A DNA stretch of 42,435 nt from assembly GCA_016193565.1 (NCBI GenBank), contig JACPRY010000002.1, positions 1 to 42,435 of the forward strand, written 5' to 3'. The DNA comes from Armatimonadota bacterium. Lineage in GTDB: Bacteria > Sysuimicrobiota > Sysuimicrobiia > Sysuimicrobiales > Kaftiobacteriaceae. Position 1 is the first letter of the stretch. Each line of letters begins with the position of its first letter. The notes under the pieces were generated by a model that was given only the letters and a program-made list of their open reading frames with translations, had not been told where the DNA came from and searched no databases. Made by a program: the position numbers and the translations under genes. Of the stretch, positions 11,960 to 41,895 are shown piece after piece.

Positions 11960-12574
11960 TCAAAAGAACGTTGCTCCCGTCGCCTGCGCCACCAGCCACC
12001 GCATCGGCGGGATCATGAAGGCCGAGAGGACATTGGTGAACGCAACCAGCAGCAGCAGGACGAGTGTCCCGTAGGGTGTGAACCGAGCATAACTGATCGC
12101 TTGCGCCGGAGGCAGGAGTCCCATCAGGATCTTCGAGCCATCGAGCGGCGGGACGGGCAGGAGGTTGAAGACGGCCAGCATCGCGTTGATACGAATCGTC
12201 GTCAGCAGCAGGCGTTCGAGCGGCGCCGAGAAGTCGAGCAGACCGAGTTTGAACGGCATGCCCAGCAGAAACAACAGCGTCACGTTGGCCAGGGGGCCGG
12301 CCGCGGCGACGATCATGGTGTCCCGCCGCCACTCCCGGAAGTTCGCGGGATTGATCTGGACGGCCTTCGCCCACCCAAACCCGGCCAGAAGGATCAGCAG
12401 GGACCCCAACGGATCGAGGTGAGCCAGCGGGTTGAGGGTCAGCCGCCCCTGGCTCCTGGGAGTGGAATCCCCCAGGCGATCGGCGACGTACGCGTGGGCG
12501 TATTCGTGGACGGTGGCTGCAACGATGAGCGCCGCGGCGACCCGCAGGAGCGTTGGGAGATCGAGACCCAGCAT
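11960..12574 (-). CDS. Site-2 protease family (M50) membrane metalloprotease, YwhC-like
   Basis: HEYAH, GRLTLNPLAHLDP, AGPLAN, FNLLPVPPLDG. Confidence 0.93.
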   Translation of the reverse strand: MLGLDLPTLLRVAAALIVAATVHEYAHAYVADRLGDSTPRSQGRLTLNPLAHLDPLGSLLILLAGFGWAKAVQINPANFREWRRDTMIVAAAGPLANVTLLFLLGMPFKLGLLDFSAPLERLLLTTIRINAMLAVFNLLPVPPLDGSKILMGLLPPAQAISYARFTPYGTLVLLLLVAFTNVLSAFMIPPMRWLVAQATGATFF

Positions 12575-12593
12575 TCCGGAACCACTTTCGCTG

Positions 12594-13898
12594 CTACAGG
12601 GCCACGTCCTTGCGCACGAGGTCGTCGTAGGTTTCCCGCTCCACAATGGTGCGCGCGTGTCCTCGGCCCGCGAGCACCACCGCCGGGCGCGGAAACCGGT
12701 TGTAGTTGCTCGCCATTGAGTAGGTGTACGCGCCGGTGGAGAAGGTCGCCAGTAGATCGCCCGGCTTCACCTCGGGCAGGTGTGCTTCCCAGATCAGCAC
12801 GTCGCCCGATTCGCAGCACCGTCCGGCGACGGCGACAGGCTGCGCCGCCTTCGCGTCAGGACGCGTGGCGATCGCGGCTTCGTATCGCGCGCCATAGAGC
12901 GCCGGCCGGGGGTTCTCGAACATCCCGCCGTCCACGGAGACATAGGTACGCACGCCGGGAATGACCTTCACGGCTCCGACAGTATACAGCGTGACGCCCG
13001 CATCGCCGACGATTGAGCGTCCCGGTTCCACGAAGAGTGTGGGTGGGCTCAGGCGATGCTCGCCGAGTTTCGCGTTGACCGTCTGTGTGAGCGAGCCAAT
13101 GTAGTCGCGGATCGACGGCGTCTCATCCGTCCGGAGGTAGCGGATGGCGAGTCCGCCGCCGAGGTTGAGTTCTTCAACGGTGACGTCGAACTCGTCGCGG
13201 ATGCGCGCCGCGAAATCCAGCAGCGCCGCCGCCGATTGCCGGAACGGTTCGAGATCGAAGATCTGGGACCCGATGTGCGCGTGCAGCCCGCGAAGATGGA
13301 CACCCGGCATCTTCCGGGCCCGTTCCACTGCCCGGTACGCCGCGCCGTCGAGGATCCCAAAACCGAACTTCGAGTCCACGCCGCCGGTCCGGATCGCCTG
13401 GTGCGTGTGGGGTTCGATCCCGGGCGTGAGTCGGAGCTGAATGTGCGCCTGTACACCCAACCGTCCGGTCAGTGCTTCGAGCAGATCGAGTTCGTAGTCA
13501 TTATCGACGATGAACCGACCGACCCCAATCCGCAGCGCATCTTCGATCTCGTGCGGCGTCTTGTTGTTCCCGTGGAAGTACATCTCGGAAGCCGGCACGC
13601 CGGCGCGGCGCGCGGTGTAAATCTCTCCGCCCGACGCGACGTCAACACCGAGTCCCTCCTGATGTGCGATCTGACAGGTCGCAACGATGCAGCAGGCCTT
13701 TGACGCGAAGAGCACCCGACCGGTTCCATACGATTGGGCCATGATGCCCGTGTAGGCGCGGCAGTTCGCGCGGAGCCGGTCTTCGTCCAACACGTGCAGC
13801 GGCGTGCCGAACTCGCGCGCCAGATCGGCCGCGTCGCAGCCCGCGATTTCGAGATGGCCCGCCGTAGAGATTCCGAACCCGAAGAGCGCCATAAACAT
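12594..13898 (-). CDS. lysA: Diaminopimelate decarboxylase
   Basis: FGTP, ASKA (PLP Lys), HGNNK, SKFG, HIGSQI, EPGRSIV, CESGD, GAY...MASNYN. Confidence 0.95.
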   Translation of the reverse strand: MFMALFGFGISTAGHLEIAGCDAADLAREFGTPLHVLDEDRLRANCRAYTGIMAQSYGTGRVLFASKACCIVATCQIAHQEGLGVDVASGGEIYTARRAGVPASEMYFHGNNKTPHEIEDALRIGVGRFIVDNDYELDLLEALTGRLGVQAHIQLRLTPGIEPHTHQAIRTGGVDSKFGFGILDGAAYRAVERARKMPGVHLRGLHAHIGSQIFDLEPFRQSAAALLDFAARIRDEFDVTVEELNLGGGLAIRYLRTDETPSIRDYIGSLTQTVNAKLGEHRLSPPTLFVEPGRSIVGDAGVTLYTVGAVKVIPGVRTYVSVDGGMFENPRPALYGARYEAAIATRPDAKAAQPVAVAGRCCESGDVLIWEAHLPEVKPGDLLATFSTGAYTYSMASNYNRFPRPAVVLAGRGHARTIVERETYDDLVRKDVAL

Positions 13899-14029: not shown

Positions 14030-15208
14030 ATGCGAGACGTCGTGATTCTCAGCGCGGCGCGCACGCCCATCGGCCGCTTCCTGGGCGGCCTGGCCGCCAT
14101 CCCGGCGCCGCGCCTGGGCAGCATCGCCATCGCCGAGGCGATCCGTCGGGCCGGGATTGATAAGGGCGACGTCGACGAAGTCCTCATGGGCCATGTGCTG
14201 ACCGCCGGGGTTGGAGGGGCGCCGGCACGTCAAGCCACACTATACGCGGGCCTGCCGACCTCCGTGCCTGCGACCACCATCAACAAGATGTGCGGCTCTG
14301 GCCTCAAGACGGTGATGATGGGGGCACAGGCGATCGCCGCCGGCGACGCCGACATCATCGTTGCCGGCGGGATGGAGAACATGAGCGCCGCCCCCTACCT
14401 CCTGCCGCGTGCCCGCGCCGGCTACCGGCTGGGCGACGACAAGATCATCGACACGGTGCTCCACGATGGCCTGGTTGATGCCTTCAAACACATTCATATG
14501 GGCAACTGCGCGGAGATCCTGGCACGCGAGTACAAGATCTCCCGCCAGGAGCAGGATGACTACGCTCGGCTGAGCTACTCGCGCGCGATCGCGGCGATGG
14601 ATGACGGGTTCTTCGCAAACGAGATCGTCCCAGTCGAAGTGTCCCAGGGCAAAGCCGAACCGGCGATCGTCGCCGAAGACGAGGAACCCCGCCGCGTAGA
14701 CTTCGGCAAGATGGCAACACTGCGTCCCGTATTCGAGGAGAACGGCACGGTGACGGCGGCCAACGCCAGCAGCATCAGCGACGGCGGGGCGGCGGTGGTG
14801 ATTGCGGCGGCGGAGGTCACAAAGGCGAAGGGGCTTCGCCCCCTGGCCCGCATCGTCGGCCAGGCGGGGGCGGCGATGGCTCCGGAATGGTTCACGATCG
14901 CCCCCGCGCAGGCCGCCCGGGCGCTGCTGGACAAGGTCGGCTGGTCGAGAGATCACGTGGATCTGTTCGAGATCAACGAAGCCTTTGCCGCGGTCGTCAT
15001 TGGGGTGTGCCGCGACCTCGGTCTCGCGTATGACCGGGTGAACGTCCACGGCGGCGCGGTCGCCATGGGTCACCCTATCGGCGCAAGCGGCGCCCGGATT
15101 CTCACCACCCTGCTGTATGCGATGCCGCGGAACGAAGCCCGGCGCGGTGTCGTCGCGATCTGCCTGGCCGGGGGCGAGGCCGTCGCCCTCGCAATCGAAA
15201 GGATGTAG
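14030..15208 (+). CDS. Acetyl-CoA C-acetyltransferase (canonical thiolase)
   Basis: NKMCGSG, GGMENMS, NEAFA, GHPIGASG, ICLAGG: all catalytic Cys/His/Cys present. Confidence 0.95.
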   Translation: MRDVVILSAARTPIGRFLGGLAAIPAPRLGSIAIAEAIRRAGIDKGDVDEVLMGHVLTAGVGGAPARQATLYAGLPTSVPATTINKMCGSGLKTVMMGAQAIAAGDADIIVAGGMENMSAAPYLLPRARAGYRLGDDKIIDTVLHDGLVDAFKHIHMGNCAEILAREYKISRQEQDDYARLSYSRAIAAMDDGFFANEIVPVEVSQGKAEPAIVAEDEEPRRVDFGKMATLRPVFEENGTVTAANASSISDGGAAVVIAAAEVTKAKGLRPLARIVGQAGAAMAPEWFTIAPAQAARALLDKVGWSRDHVDLFEINEAFAAVVIGVCRDLGLAYDRVNVHGGAVAMGHPIGASGARILTTLLYAMPRNEARRGVVAICLAGGEAVALAIERM

Positions 15209-38465: not shown

Positions 38466-38753
38466 TTACCCGACAATGTGAAACCCCCGACCACCCGACG
38501 GCGCTTCCCACGTCATCTGGAGATCGTCCACCCGGGCACCCGAGGGGCCGGCTCGAATAGCCTCGATGAAGGTCTCGACCGCGTCCCGCGAACCTTCCAC
38601 CGCCGTCTCGACGCGGCCGTCGGGCAGGTTGCGGGTGAACCCCGACACCCCAAGCCGCCGGGCCGTGCGCTCTGCGAAGAACCTAAAGCCGACGCCCTGC
38701 ACGCTGCCGCGGATCCAGAGGTGACAGCGGACACTCTCAGGCACGTGCATCAT
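38466..38753 (-). CDS. acyP: Acylphosphatase
   Basis: G.VQGVGFR, G..RNL.DGRVE, GP..A.V; start approximate. Confidence 0.92.
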   Translation of the reverse strand: MMHVPESVRCHLWIRGSVQGVGFRFFAERTARRLGVSGFTRNLPDGRVETAVEGSRDAVETFIEAIRAGPSGARVDDLQMTWEAPSGGRGFHIVG

Positions 38754-39177
38754 CCTGCCCTGCTCCGGCCGGGAGCTTCCGGTACACGGCTCCCAGCACA
38801 CCGTTCACGAACTTCCCTGATTCGTCCGTGCCGTAGCGCTTCGCGAGTACGACCGCTTCGTTGATGACGACCCGTGCCGGCGTGTCGAGGTAGAACAGTT
38901 CGTACGTGGCCATGCGCAGGATCGTCCGGTCGGTGCTCGCGAGCCGGTCGACCGGCCAGTCCTTCGTGAGTGAGGCCAGCGTCCGGTCGATCTCGGTACG
39001 GTGTGTCCATGTCCCTTCACACAGTGCGCGGACGAACGGCCATTCCGACTCCGGAACTCCAGACTGAACCCGGGCGAGGGCCGCGGCCAGGGGGTGTCTG
39101 CCGACATCAACCTCGAAGAGGACGCGCAGCGCGAGTTCCCGCATCCGCCGGCGAGACCCCACTTTCGGCCGGCTCAC
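38737..39177 (-). CDS. nusB: Transcription antitermination factor NusB
   Basis: RRR.RE.AL..LF, DR.ILR, V.INEAV.LAK.YG, FVNGVL; start approximate. Confidence 0.94.
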   Translation of the reverse strand: MSRPKVGSRRRMRELALRVLFEVDVGRHPLAAALARVQSGVPESEWPFVRALCEGTWTHRTEIDRTLASLTKDWPVDRLASTDRTILRMATYELFYLDTPARVVINEAVVLAKRYGTDESGKFVNGVLGAVYRKLPAGAGQDDARA

Positions 39178-39266
39178 TGCATCGACGCTCCGGCGCGCCG
39201 CACGGCATGTGGCGACCACCAGTGTACCCGAGCAGCGGGCCGGCGGCGCAGCGAGGCCGAACCGCG

Positions 39267-39443
39267 AAAAGACCTACCGGATGAAGCACCAATCGATGTC
39301 TCTTGTGGGCAGGCGGTGAGGCCGGTGGATCTAGCACGTTGAAAACGAAAGGACCACCTTGCGGTGGCTTGATGGCTCGCCTGCCCAACCGGTTCGTTGG
39401 GCCCGGTCAGACACGCGTCAATCACCCGCGGGTGGCCCTGCAC
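39267..39443 (-). ncRNA. Putative ~177-nt structured non-coding RNA (6S-RNA-like rod or unknown class)
   Basis: Own promoter, 5'/3' closing helices with G-U pairs only on the minus strand, 10-bp UGGGCAGGCG/CGCCUGCCCA helix, CCACC-GCAA-GGUGG GNRA hairpin, 3' UUUU. Confidence 0.7.
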
Positions 39444-39449
39444 GGAGGT

Positions 39450-39478
39450 ATTATAGAGGGTCTATTTCACCCGTTCAA
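39450..39478 (-). promoter_or_regulatory. Near-consensus sigma70 promoter overlapping the efp 3' end
   Basis: TTGAAC (39478-39473)-N17-TATAAT (39455-39450) in a high-GC background. Confidence 0.8.
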
Positions 39479-40022
39479 GGTATTCGCCCGTGCGCGTGTC
39501 GATGCGCACGCGATCGCCTGCGGAGACGAAGAACGGCACCTGCACCGTGATCCCGGTCTCCAGCTTCGCCGGTTTTGAACTGCCGGCAGCGGTGTCCCCT
39601 TTCACTCCCGGCGGTGTCTCCACCACCTCAAGCTCCACGGCGTTCGGCAGCTCGACAGCGATCGGCCGGCCCTCGTAAAACACGACGGTGACATCGGTGT
39701 TTTCCTTCAAGTAGCCCACGGCATCGCCGAGCAATGCATTCGGGAGCGAGAGCTGCTCGTACGTCTGGTGATCCATCACGACGTACTCGCCCGCCTGCGA
39801 GTACAGGAACTGCATCGGCTTCCGATCGAGGTAGGCCTGGCTCACGCGCTCATCGGAGGTGAAGTTGCGTTCCAGCACGGCCCCGGTCTTCAGGTTGCGG
39901 AGCCTCGCGCGCACGAACGCCTGGCGCTGCGCCCGCTTGTGATGGTGTGTCTCAATCACCGCGTATAGGTCGCCTTCCAGCTGGATGACCACGCCCGGGC
40001 GGAGATCGCCGGTCGAGATCAT
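39462..40022 (-). CDS. efp: Elongation factor P
   Basis: AFVR..L.NL.TG, MQFLY, T.PGVKGDT, KPA.LETG..V.VP.F, DTRTGEY..R. Confidence 0.96.
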   Translation of the reverse strand: MISTGDLRPGVVIQLEGDLYAVIETHHHKRAQRQAFVRARLRNLKTGAVLERNFTSDERVSQAYLDRKPMQFLYSQAGEYVVMDHQTYEQLSLPNALLGDAVGYLKENTDVTVVFYEGRPIAVELPNAVELEVVETPPGVKGDTAAGSSKPAKLETGITVQVPFFVSAGDRVRIDTRTGEYLERVK

Positions 40023-41080
40023 AGGACCAGCAGCTCCTTCGGCGCGCGCGTGAGAACTTCACTGGCGTGGTCGCGGATCACCACGAGGTCTTCGATGCGC
40101 ACCCCGCCCCACCCGGCCAGGTAGATGCCGGGTTCTACCGTCACCACCATGCTCGCTCCGAGCACGGCGTCCTCACGCGGAGACAGCGTCGGGCCCTCGT
40201 GCACCATCAGGCCGACGCCGTGCCCCAAACTGTGCCCAAAGGCATCCCCGTAGCCAGCGCCGGCGATCACGTCGCGCGCCAGCGCATCGGCTTCCTTGCC
40301 CGTCATGCCGGCATGAATGCCGCGCACCGCCGTCTGCTGCGCCTCAAGGACGAGCGCGTAGACCTCCCGCTGCTTTGGTGACACTTCGTCGATCACCACG
40401 GTGCGCGTGCAGTCAGAGTTGTAGTGACGGTACACCGCCCCGAAATCCAAGGTCACGAGGTCCCCTGCCTGCAGGACGCGCTCGGCGGCGCGCCCGTGCG
40501 GGAGCGATGAGCGCGGGCCGCTGGCGACGATGGTCTCGAACGCCTCCTTGTCCGCGCCGTGGCGCCGCATGAAGAACTCCATCTCCAGGGCGATATCGCG
40601 CTCCACCGCCCCGGGCCGCAGGTACGAGCGGATGTGGGCGAACGCCGCATCAGCGATCTCGACGGCCTTCCGGATGCGCGAGAGTTCCTCGTCGTCTTTC
40701 ACCCAACGCGCCCGGTCCAGGCCTTCCATCGGCACCAATTCCGCCGGCTGAAGTCTTGTCGTGTAGTCCTGATACTGCTTGACGGTGACTGATTCGCTCT
40801 CGAAACCGATCCGCTTCCATTCCCGCTGCTGCACGAGCGCGGCCAGCGTTTCGATGTACTGCCGGTCGGCCTTCATCACCTCGAACTCGGGCGCCTCGCG
40901 TCCCGCCTGCTCCACGTACCGGAAGTCCACCAATAAGATCGCTTCTTTCCGCGTGACGATCGCGACGCCGTCGGAGCCAAAGAACCCCGTCACGTACGCC
41001 CGGTTCTCGGACTTCTGAATGAGCAGCGCATCCAGGTTATGCTGGCTGAGCATCGAGCGAACCCGCTCGAGTCGAGACAT
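40019..41080 (-). CDS. Xaa-Pro aminopeptidase (M24B; YqhT/PapA-like)
   Basis: N..Y.TGF.G, DFRY, PHG, DFGA...Y.SD.TRT, H.LGHGVG, EPGIY, GVRIED. Confidence 0.93.
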   Translation of the reverse strand: MSRLERVRSMLSQHNLDALLIQKSENRAYVTGFFGSDGVAIVTRKEAILLVDFRYVEQAGREAPEFEVMKADRQYIETLAALVQQREWKRIGFESESVTVKQYQDYTTRLQPAELVPMEGLDRARWVKDDEELSRIRKAVEIADAAFAHIRSYLRPGAVERDIALEMEFFMRRHGADKEAFETIVASGPRSSLPHGRAAERVLQAGDLVTLDFGAVYRHYNSDCTRTVVIDEVSPKQREVYALVLEAQQTAVRGIHAGMTGKEADALARDVIAGAGYGDAFGHSLGHGVGLMVHEGPTLSPREDAVLGASMVVTVEPGIYLAGWGGVRIEDLVVIRDHASEVLTRAPKELLVL

Positions 41081-41173: not shown

Positions 41174-41755
41174 TCATTCTGCGACGGCGGTTTCAGTTGG
41201 TCGAGCGGTCTTCATTGAGTGACGGACGAACTCCACATAGGCCGATCTCGCTCGACCGCGGTCTTCCGCCAGGAGCGCAAGTACCGGCGCCACGTCGACG
41301 AGAGAATCTCCACCATCGGTCGCATAGGCGCCAAAACTGCTCCACGGATACTGCTCAGGCTGCTCTACGATGCCGGCTCGCACGGGGTTAAGGTGTACGT
41401 AGCACGTCGACTGGAGAAGATCCTCATTGCGATCGATAACCCGGCCATGGAAGCGCGTCGCAAACAGGTGCCCCCGTCTGGTGTGTTTCCGATTGAACGC
41501 GATTGCGTAGCGACCGTGCACCCACCAGATGCTTTCGGAGACGTTGGGCTTCGTCGTCTGAATGACGAGATGGATGTGGGTAGTCATCAGTGCGTAGGCG
41601 AAGATGCAAGGGTCGCACTTTGCCTTGGCTTCGGCGAGTAGGATCAGGTACCGATACCGATCCCCGTCGTCCACGAAGAGTGCGTCTCCGCCGGTGGCAT
41701 GCGCCGTGATGTGGTAGGTGACTCCGGCACCAAGCAAACGGTGCGCCCTAGGCAT
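41174..41755 (-). mobile_element. REP-associated tyrosine transposase (RAYT, Y1_Tnp/HUH family)
   Basis: MPR start, YHIT, YALMTTHIHL (HUH), GHLF..RF, YVHLNPVRAG (catalytic Tyr), YPWSS. Confidence 0.88.
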
Positions 41756-41768
41756 TGCTCTTCCTCAC

Positions 41769-41844
41769 AGGCCAGATCTGAGAGATCTGTGCCTCACCTC
41801 AGGTGCCAGGCACCTGAGTGCCTGGCACCTGAGTGCCTGGCACC
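41769..41844. repeat. REP-like palindrome cluster upstream of RAYT
   Basis: AGGC-CAGATCT-GAG-AGATCTG-T-GCCT hairpin, then three GTGCCWGGCAC palindromes at 15-bp spacing (41803, 41818, 41833). Confidence 0.85.
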
Positions 41845-41895
41845 GGCATGAGAGATAGCTCAAATGGGTCATCTCCCTTTGTGCTCACGGTTGGC

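Follow-up and report, generated by a model that had tools for sequence, protein, structure and literature searches.

The stretch of DNA analysed here (the window, 42,435 nucleotides (nt) long) carries on its minus strand, between efp and nusB, a leader RNA of about 100 nt (39443..39342, or 39478..39342 when its promoter is included) that is previously undescribed and of a mechanistically familiar type. Its transcript is predicted to begin on a GUG codon, and the upstream open reading frame (uORF) that opens there runs through a conserved fold and a U-rich tract and stops on the start codon of nusB. On the basis of the sequence comparisons set out below, we consider it fairly probable that this leaderless uORF couples both transcriptional read-through into nusB and nusB translation to ribosome loading. 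The leader family is new to the resources that we consulted: no family of Rfam 15 matched the window at the gathering score, the only matches in 39100-39520 at E <= 10 were two chance ones lying outside the element, and nine leader loci searched at E <= 1 gave nothing at the leader. Literature searches on leaderless ORFs and on Nus factor autoregulation yielded no account of a nusB leader with an upstream ORF.

NusB was found in 21 of the 22 genomes of f1, the family of the genome that carries the window (G000), and the upstream regions that we read in 19 of them all contained the same element of about 100 nt. A covariance model built from 16 f1 leaders (model R1, alignment A1) gave matches in 31 of 94 genomes, which are the collection's complete holding for the phylum Ca. 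Sysuimicrobiota (seven families), and a second, later covariance model (R2) in 38 of the 94, falling in two families of the seven. Besides G000 itself, R2 matched 19 of 21 genomes in f1 and 18 of 34 in f5 (a count that includes the unpublished genome G062 as a table row only), with 0 of 23 in f3, 0 of 12 in f4 and 0 of 1 in each of f2, f6 and f7. The window leader scored 85.0 bits with R1 and 79.9 bits with R2, and there was a single full-length leader match per genome. The two f1 genomes that gave no leader match also lack a good NusB match, so their leader loci are probably unassembled. By NusB similarity, the nearest named records are the metagenome-assembled genome 'Armatimonadetes bacterium RBG_19FT_COMBO_69_19' and Candidatus Calidihabitans tengchongensis, the latter classified in Ca. 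Sysuimicrobiota. All 37 leaders examined lie directly upstream of nusB. In the congener of G000 (G001) and in G002, G008 and G013, the sequence 5' of the leader shows no efp match and the leader is retained, indicating that the element belongs to nusB and not to efp.

In all of the 30 leaders compared, a TAnnnT hexamer precedes an invariant GUG, at a distance of 6 nt in 29 and of 7 nt in one, and because the spacing of the -10 box to the GUG is fixed, the leader RNA should begin at or beside the G of this codon. An extended -10 motif (TGn) is present in 28 of the 30, the window being without it, and a TTG stands at a distance matching a -35 element in 12. The promoter that a first-pass annotation of the window had proposed, TTGAAC-17-TATAAT, is indeed present at 39478..39450 (-), and it is the sole such site in 38700-40100, where shuffled sequences would be expected to give 0.2.

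The RNA downstream of this promoter has a conserved fold. In the RNAalifold consensus, nt 7-14 (GACCACCC) are paired with GGGUGGUC, located just 5' of the U tract, in a helix named P1, and inside P1 lie inner stems and a variable apical hairpin. On a MAFFT alignment, 94.5% of the cells pair in this fold, against at most 44.1% with slid partners, and its 9 double-change cells were reached by 1 of 500 shuffles. The 37 leaders supply 29 distinct combinations of P1 strands. Among these, pairs 3 and 4 are C-G throughout, pairs 1, 2, 5, 6 and 7 vary only to G-U, save for four A-C mismatches at pair 2, and pair 8 is C-G in 19 and G-C in 4; several of the changes alter the encoded amino acid and keep the pair. 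When single sequences were folded, scoring only the presence or absence of P1 in the minimum free energy (MFE) structure and disregarding forced-P1 energies, P1 was within the MFE structure of 11 of 16 f1 sequences, and in the other 5 a compact hairpin formed instead, between the same 3' arm and a CCACC box close by. In the window, the hairpin GCCACC-GCAA-GGUGGU (39368..39353) shares its 3' arm with P1. The first-pass annotation had pointed out this hairpin with its GCAA loop, and our scan scores it, together with its U-rich tail, as terminator-like: as in an intrinsic terminator, a G+C-rich stem-loop is followed by CCTTTCGTTT. Across 30 leaders, the tract after the stem contains 4-8 U in 10 nt.

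The same annotation had seen no credible ORF at the locus, a statement that fails since a conserved uORF opens at 39443, the 89-codon ORF of the window being without any Pfam family match. The start of nusB was set by comparison with 36 other genomes (in the window, a GGAG is found 11 nt 5' of it), and the TGA of the uORF (39176..39174) overlaps the nusB GTG (39177..39175) as GTGA. In 29 of 30 genomes, the first stop of the ORF that begins at the 5' GUG falls within -4 to +5 nt of an ATG or GTG in the nusB frame, with the arrangements GTGA, ATGA, TGATG, TAGTG, TAG-ATG and TAGcATG and with uORF lengths of 32-89 codons. The seven later genomes, detected with R2 only, all conform, six with GTGA and one with the nusB start 8 nt before the stop. 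In total, 36 of 37 genomes have the stop at or immediately beside the nusB start, in most cases as GTGA or ATGA, and it is this comparison of frame and stop-start adjacency that favours a putative translated short ORF in the leader, as a leader-peptide attenuator would have.

This adjacency is found over separations of 117 to 302 nt between the GUG and a conserved NusB motif. Counted from the GUG, nusB occupies frame 2 in 27 of the 30 genomes and in 6 of the 7 later ones. In most genera the structured core has a length divisible by three (0 mod 3), in two genera the remainder is 1 (1 mod 3), and the spacer compensates. A first stop within 26 nt before the NusB motif arises in 2-9% of mononucleotide shuffles per sequence and was observed in 17 of 18 distinct classes. 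Within genera, substitutions at codon positions 1/2/3 number 93/108/87 in the uORF and 299/208/685 in nusB. As the uORF substitutions are without third-position bias, the comparison indicates that the peptide is not conserved; conservation lies in the frame and in the folding of the RNA. Genera differ in the frame in which the conserved GGGUGGU is read. It thus appears that the act of translation and its frame are selected, and the peptide is not. In the window, the uORF crosses the leader fold, the U tract and the whole of an inserted repeat described below, and is 46 codons longer than that of G001.

Leaders of f1 and f5 are alike only at their 5' and 3' ends, the interior being different, and leaders with variant interiors and the same plan occur in G036 (10 codons, GTGA), G039 (24 codons, ATGA) and G041 (ATGA). 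A shorter, related nusB leader that the covariance models did not detect is present in two f3 genomes, G028 and G078 (L177, L178), where TATAAT-ACGGTA-GTGC is followed by a hairpin GACCACC-N5/6-GGUGGUC with UUUGUUU; in G078, the ORF passes through this GACCACC...GGUGGUC hairpin and ends with GTGA. No leader was found in G054 or in the f4 genome G032, and in f4 and part of f5 efp is joined to nusB without one. The efp-nusB junction of G049 (L181, C45) is without promoter or leader and has a 6-codon mini-ORF between the two genes: the efp stop overlaps the ATG of the mini-ORF (ATGA), whose own stop lies 5 nt before the nusB ATG, an organization indicating a minimal ribosome relay from efp to nusB. 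The features of the locus in the window are collected in Table 1.

Table 1. Features of the efp-nusB locus, in window coordinates
Feature	Position	Strand	Basis
efp (elongation factor P), upstream neighbour	39462..40022	-	Pfam EFP_N, EFP, Elong-fact-P_C, E 2e-20 to 2.5e-28
-35-like hexamer TTGAAC, inside the last efp codons	39473..39478	-	promoter scan
-10 hexamer TATAAT	39450..39455	-	promoter scan
GUG, predicted first transcribed bases and uORF start codon	39441..39443	-	G1, T2 and G3 invariant in A1; fixed -10 spacing
Upstream ORF, 89 codons + TGA	39174..39443	-	translation; comparative frame and stop analysis
Leader RNA core, P1 approximately 39437..39431 with 39358..39352	39352..39443	-	RNAalifold, pair counts, single-sequence folds
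Hairpin GCCACC-GCAA-GGUGGU (39368..39353) and U-rich tract CCUUUCGUUUUC, terminator-like	39342..39368	-	terminator scan; conserved among leaders
Copy of a dispersed structured repeat of about 140 nt	39203..39341	-	BLAST, nhmmer; site empty in G001 and G007
nusB, GTG start at 39177, 146 amino acids	38737..39177	-	Pfam NusB, E 1.3e-37; translation

Promoter spacing, fold, U tract, open frame and stop-start overlap come from the comparison of the genomes itself, and from them we infer where transcription starts, that initiation is leaderless, that termination occurs, what effect the ribosome has and in which direction regulation works. The strong promoter, with its -10 box 6 nt before the GUG, would produce a transcript starting with a start codon, that is, a leaderless mRNA. 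Ribosomes would load on the 5' GUG and translate the short uORF, the identity of the peptide being irrelevant. The uORF would lead them across the rod, made of P1 (5' GACCACCC, 3' GGGUGGUC), the inner helices and back-up CCACC boxes for the same GGGUGG, then across the U tract, to a stop on or beside the nusB start codon. With no ribosome, the rod or the compact hairpin, together with the U tract, would lead to intrinsic termination, and in leaders with 8-13 nt from the stem to the nusB start the fold would also bury the start region. Since P1 begins at nt 7, ribosomes arriving late would be unable to load on the completed fold. An early-loading ribosome that chases RNA polymerase closely would keep the hairpin from forming, and would then pass to the overlapping nusB start by termination-reinitiation. 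The output of nusB would in this way report the speed at which ribosomes engage with the nascent RNA.

Several observations weigh against this mechanism. The genomes are related, so that counts across leaders are not independent events. Transcripts reading through from efp would carry the GUG internally, and a genome-wide test for leaderless genes (TAnnnT-N6/7-RTG followed by a long ORF) gave the same fractions with control spacings. When the first 16 nt were masked, GGUGG found a new partner in a CCACC box further downstream in 21 of 26 sequences, so a ribosome bound at the 5' end would not by itself stop the hairpin, and only one chasing the polymerase closely could do so. A mutually exclusive antiterminator structure was not found in the leaders, which have only alternative partners (P1 and the CCACC boxes) for the same 3' arm. 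Part of f5 has a weak U tract (4-6 U in 10), for which reason termination may not be the common output of the leaders. The uORF peptides differ freely and no shared regulatory codon run was found in them, which, like the missing antiterminator, speaks against a classical attenuator. Pro-Pro motifs are present in only about half of the peptides; sensing of EF-P through Pro-Pro codons was considered and not adopted, given this frequency and the fact that the motif arises from CCACC boxes read in one frame. In the f3 genome G028, the ORF stops after 18 codons, ahead of the hairpin. Finally, in G020, the exception to the stop-start arrangement, the U tract and the bases after it are duplicated in tandem (35 nt; L154, C232, downstream of 8491), so that uORF and nusB form one predicted, in-frame fused ORF of 191 codons; this duplication could be a real variant or an assembly artefact.

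A more specific proposal, which we put forward only tentatively and regard as rather doubtful, is that the leader could be a ribosome-availability sensor of an undescribed design, in which a 70S ribosome must engage before the 5' codons lock into P1, pursue RNA polymerase through a redundant terminator and hand over to nusB. The redundancy of the terminator would be deliberate in such a sensor, three CCACC boxes being available for one GGGUGG. If this were true, transcription-translation coupling would directly gate the production of an rRNA antitermination factor in Ca. Sysuimicrobiota, a candidate phylum without experimental genetics. Confirmation of the coupling would mean that the supply of an rRNA antitermination factor is tied to ribosome engagement, and that the mycobacterial logic of leaderless ORFs and NUGA coupling, compared below, also operates in a distant uncultured phylum.

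The first-pass annotation had drawn the locus as a single structured RNA of 177 nt (39443..39267), and had suggested that it might be a divergent 6S RNA, a new class or an attenuating leader of nusB. The last of these suggestions is supported for the 5' 100 nt or so (39443..39342), with their promoter, conserved fold and terminator-like end, and not for the remainder. The single unit was not borne out, being a chimera of the leader and an inserted repeat: a repeat of about 140 nt, reaching to approximately 39203, contributes its first 75 nt (39341..39267) as the 3' arm and UUUU end of the rod, and the CGUU-UUC-AACG hairpin is the leader U tract fused to the first bases of the repeat. It is because the unit is chimeric that a new 177-nt class, as drawn, is unsupported.

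The five helices listed for the rod are all in the sequence, and 31 pairs can be enforced jointly. Among them, a perfect 10-bp duplex, UGGGCAGGCG/CGCCUGCCCA, joins the leader (39387-39378) to the core of the repeat (39311-39302), and together these helices are what favours a single rod. The 177-nt stretch has an MFE of -69.8 kcal/mol with z = -1.75, 9 of 200 shuffles being at least as stable, and the rod, at -61.1, is 8.7 kcal/mol worse; in a 249-nt context, the rod reaches -96.1 against -108.7, which is 12.6 kcal/mol worse. The segment CGCCUGCCCA, which had been paired to the leader, overlaps a covarying stem internal to the repeat family, so that part of the same bases is taken by the repeat's own fold. 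As the G001 leader, with no adjoining repeat, has CGGGCGGGCG at the position matching UGGGCAGGCG, the 10-bp match is most simply seen as a coincidence of two G+C-rich motifs. With a 3' arm that belongs to a repeat missing at this site in G001 and G007, and with the 6S RNA of the genome located elsewhere, a single 177-nt rod RNA, 6S-like or of a new class, is scarcely credible. The rod is an accident of a repeat landing beside a structured leader, that is, two unrelated elements side by side.

Genomes usually have one 6S RNA gene and sometimes two. The resemblance of the drawn rod to 6S RNA (RF00013) lies in its size and in a rod-like drawing with an internal loop. It differs in that a search with RF00013 found nothing at the gathering score anywhere in the window or, within 39100-39520, at E <= 10, and the Rfam check that had been suggested found neither this nor any other family on the element. 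The drawing moreover spans two unrelated elements, and the true full-length 6S RNA of G000 lies on a different contig (G000:C171:2606-2782 (-); 85.1 bits, gathering score 46.4). A divergent 6S RNA was thus rejected, with no RF00013 match, a 6S RNA elsewhere and half of the rod formed by a repeat missing from the relatives' site; the original annotation would have sent someone after a nonexistent 6S-like RNA.

The two components of the rod were separated by a DNA search of 41 genomes (G000 and 40 relatives). The 3' part of the query (approximately 39341..39232) matched about 20 places in G000, plus G001, G005, G006 and G015, and the 5' part (39462..39342) matched one place each in G001 and G007 only. 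In G001, 39462..39342 is joined directly to 39202..38707 with no repeat between, and in G007 the leader part runs straight into nusB without insert. Because these sites join the leader directly to the nusB side, the comparison indicates that 39341..39203 is an insertion of one repeat copy, or else reflects a deletion in the other genomes. The net difference from G001 is +138 nt (46 codons), with no stop added and the frame kept. It amounts to a natural experiment with the outcome that selection for intact coupling would allow.

Using BLAST and an nhmmer profile (E < 0.01), we found 25 repeat matches in G000: 13 partial ones and 12 near-full ones that extend over the greater part of the 147-position profile, one of the latter being truncated by a contig end. 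An alignment of fifteen copies, taken from G000, G001, G005, G006 and G015, has a mean column identity of 74%. Their stems, formed by a long-range pairing of GGCC..CCGC with GCGG..GGCC and by a 3' hairpin GCCCGC...GCGGGC, show 95.9% pairing, where slid partners reach no more than 45.5%, and contain 11 double-change cells, a number reached by 0 of 500 shuffles; pair 40-98, for example, is AU in 7 copies and GC in 7. The copies occupy tight intergenic gaps in either orientation relative to the genes, such as the gap between lpd and pdhA and the one that separates rpsS from the ribosomal protein gene after it. For both of these copies, 5 of 5 relatives (G001, G005, G006, G007, G010) have an empty orthologous site, and the window site is empty in the 2 of 2 relatives examined (G001, G007). 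We file this element as a mobile, structured intergenic repeat. The profile (E < 0.01) has no opposite-strand match at 39342-39443, for which reason the idea that the leader is an inverted copy of the repeat was rejected.

G001 contains 55 repeat matches, most of them of a short form, with the variable hairpin of the middle absent and the two conserved end segments abutting. Tandem arrays are present in G000 at C4:4005-4246 (a truncated copy, then a full one) and at C21:20547-20748 (a full copy, then a partial one). On C110, a right-half match (12533-12621 (-)) and a left-half match (14098-14156 (-)), in the same orientation, flank about 1.5 kb that holds a TetR-like ORF and a membrane-protein-like ORF; they may represent a longer, cargo-bearing relative of the repeat or two unrelated fragments.

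REPINs, MITEs and MIRU are non-autonomous structured intergenic repeats, and MIRU elements keep an open reading frame. The repeat described here resembles them in its size (about 140 nt), its many copies, its tight intergenic positions within operons in both orientations, its hairpin-rich conserved fold, its presence or absence among close relatives and its short and long forms. It differs from MITEs in that neither target-site duplication nor terminal inverted repeats were seen at the single filled/empty pair examined, its arms having only a partial 11-nt inverted match. It differs from REPINs in that no copy lies next to the RAYT-like gene of the window (41174..41755). The notion that the repeat always keeps an open frame was not supported either, since stop counts per frame in 11 copies revealed no consistently open frame.

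The RAYT-like gene encodes a Y1 transposase (41174-41755 (-); NCBIfam REP_Tyr_transpos 73.5 bits for a cut-off of 80, Pfam Y1_Tnp E 6e-6). Directly 5' of its start, at 41798-41847, are three 15-nt palindromic units GTGCC[A/T]GGCACCTGA, and the core GGTGCC[AT]GGCACC occurs 32 times on 20 contigs of G000. These palindromes look like a REP family distinct from the 140-nt repeat. We also considered the 140-nt repeat itself as the REP of this gene, and rejected this, with no copy beside the gene and flanking palindromes that differ in sequence.

Explanations of the leader other than coupling have to be weighed against the same data. The intergenic region could be plain punctuation, the hairpin and U tract being the efp terminator, the promoter being that of nusB and the open frame having no function. 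In agreement with this, efp ends 19 nt ahead of the leader GUG, the hairpin and U tract make a good terminator, open frames are common at about 70% G+C, and f4 and part of f5 link efp to nusB with no leader at all. However, the promoter lies 5' of the terminator, so that its own transcripts must cross it, and the leader is kept in the four genomes with no efp match upstream of it (G001, G002, G008, G013). The far-upstream strand of P1 is conserved, with G-U pairs and one compensatory change, and frame and stop-start adjacency are maintained in 36 of 37 genomes over 32-89 codons; we consequently judge punctuation unlikely. Another explanation could be that the terminated transcript of about 100 nt is the product itself, a small rod RNA acting in trans, perhaps with a dual function. 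A strong promoter of its own, the pairing of 5' and 3' ends, the terminator and the single copy per genome would suit such an RNA, to which we nevertheless give little credence: the element is always fused to nusB, with the nusB start 8-13 nt after the stem in the genera g7 and g11, its interior is not conserved between the two families, and the frame constraint extends past the terminator to the nusB start.

A protein-binding autoregulatory leader, in which NusB/NusE (S10) or a ribosomal protein on the rod would control termination or translation, has a precedent in the BoxA autoregulation of Nus factors documented in the portion of PMC5725501 available to us, and the repeated CCACC boxes could serve as a binding platform. 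It seems quite improbable. The rRNA leaders of G010, G012 and G004 carry a BoxA-like ACCUUGAAAACUG that has no counterpart in the nusB leaders, which is why BoxA was dropped as a nusB leader element; the rod interior differs between families, and the frame constraint would be left unexplained. A metabolite riboswitch with a terminator as its expression platform would fit the position 5' of a gene, typical of riboswitches, and a platform that is terminator-like in some genera and masks the start site in others. Yet conservation between f1 and f5 is confined to the two ends, with no conserved core resembling a ligand pocket, the nine loci had no Rfam match at E <= 1 and the fold is a simple rod, all of which makes a riboswitch very unlikely. 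Coupling of nusB to ribosome loading through a leaderless uORF is thus the reading that we prefer.

The rRNA leaders L062, L063 and L064, located 5' of the 16S rRNA in G010, G012 and G004, share a hairpin and a BoxA-like ACCUUGAAAACUGCAUAG. They also share a promoter, TTGACA..., then TAAGGT or TATCGT.

Parts of the proposed mechanism are found in known systems. pyrBI of enterobacteria has a Shine-Dalgarno-led leader peptide and UTP-sensitive pausing. As proposed for nusB, in pyrBI-type attenuation the leader ORF spans the attenuator hairpin and only a closely following ribosome prevents termination. The nusB leader differs in that it shows no sign of nucleotide sensing, is predicted to be leaderless and is coupled to the start codon of the regulated gene.

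In mycobacteria, leaderless short ORFs act as attenuators in which runs of cysteine codons serve cysteine sensing, as described in the part of Canestrari et al. (bioRxiv 10.1101/834739) that we could consult. As far as that part goes, the nusB leader as proposed would resemble them, with a short ORF at a 5'-terminal AUG or GUG that, as first cistron, sets downstream expression. The nusB leader differs from those attenuators (10.1101/834739, same part) in having no common regulatory codon and a freely drifting peptide, and in that a conserved rod and terminator lie within its uORF, which closes on the nusB start codon. In M. tuberculosis, uORFs, leaderless ones among them, share 4 nt or 1 nt with the ORF that follows, and D'Halluin et al. 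(10.1101/2022.06.01.494293), in the available sections, describe termination-reinitiation and propose a 70S hand-over and a link between translation and premature transcription termination. A stop-start overlap of the NUGA/URRUG type is found as GTGA in the window, with stop-start adjacency in 36 of 37 genomes. In that same text, which mentions nusB nowhere in the sections available, termination is mostly Rho-dependent, whereas the nusB uORF contains a hairpin resembling an intrinsic terminator and belongs to another phylum.

Finally, in the accessible part of Baniulyte et al. 2017 (PMC5725501), Nus factor autoregulation via BoxA is described in gamma-proteobacteria, with a putative boxA 5' of ribH-nusB in Pseudomonas. 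Compared with what is reported there, both cases concern a Nus factor gene with a dedicated regulatory leader, and the nusB leader differs in having no BoxA-like sequence and in that the proposed sensor would be the ribosome and not the Nus complex. Judged by that part of PMC5725501, autoregulation of Nus factors has so far been reported through BoxA, and the signal in the nusB leader points instead to a leaderless uORF.

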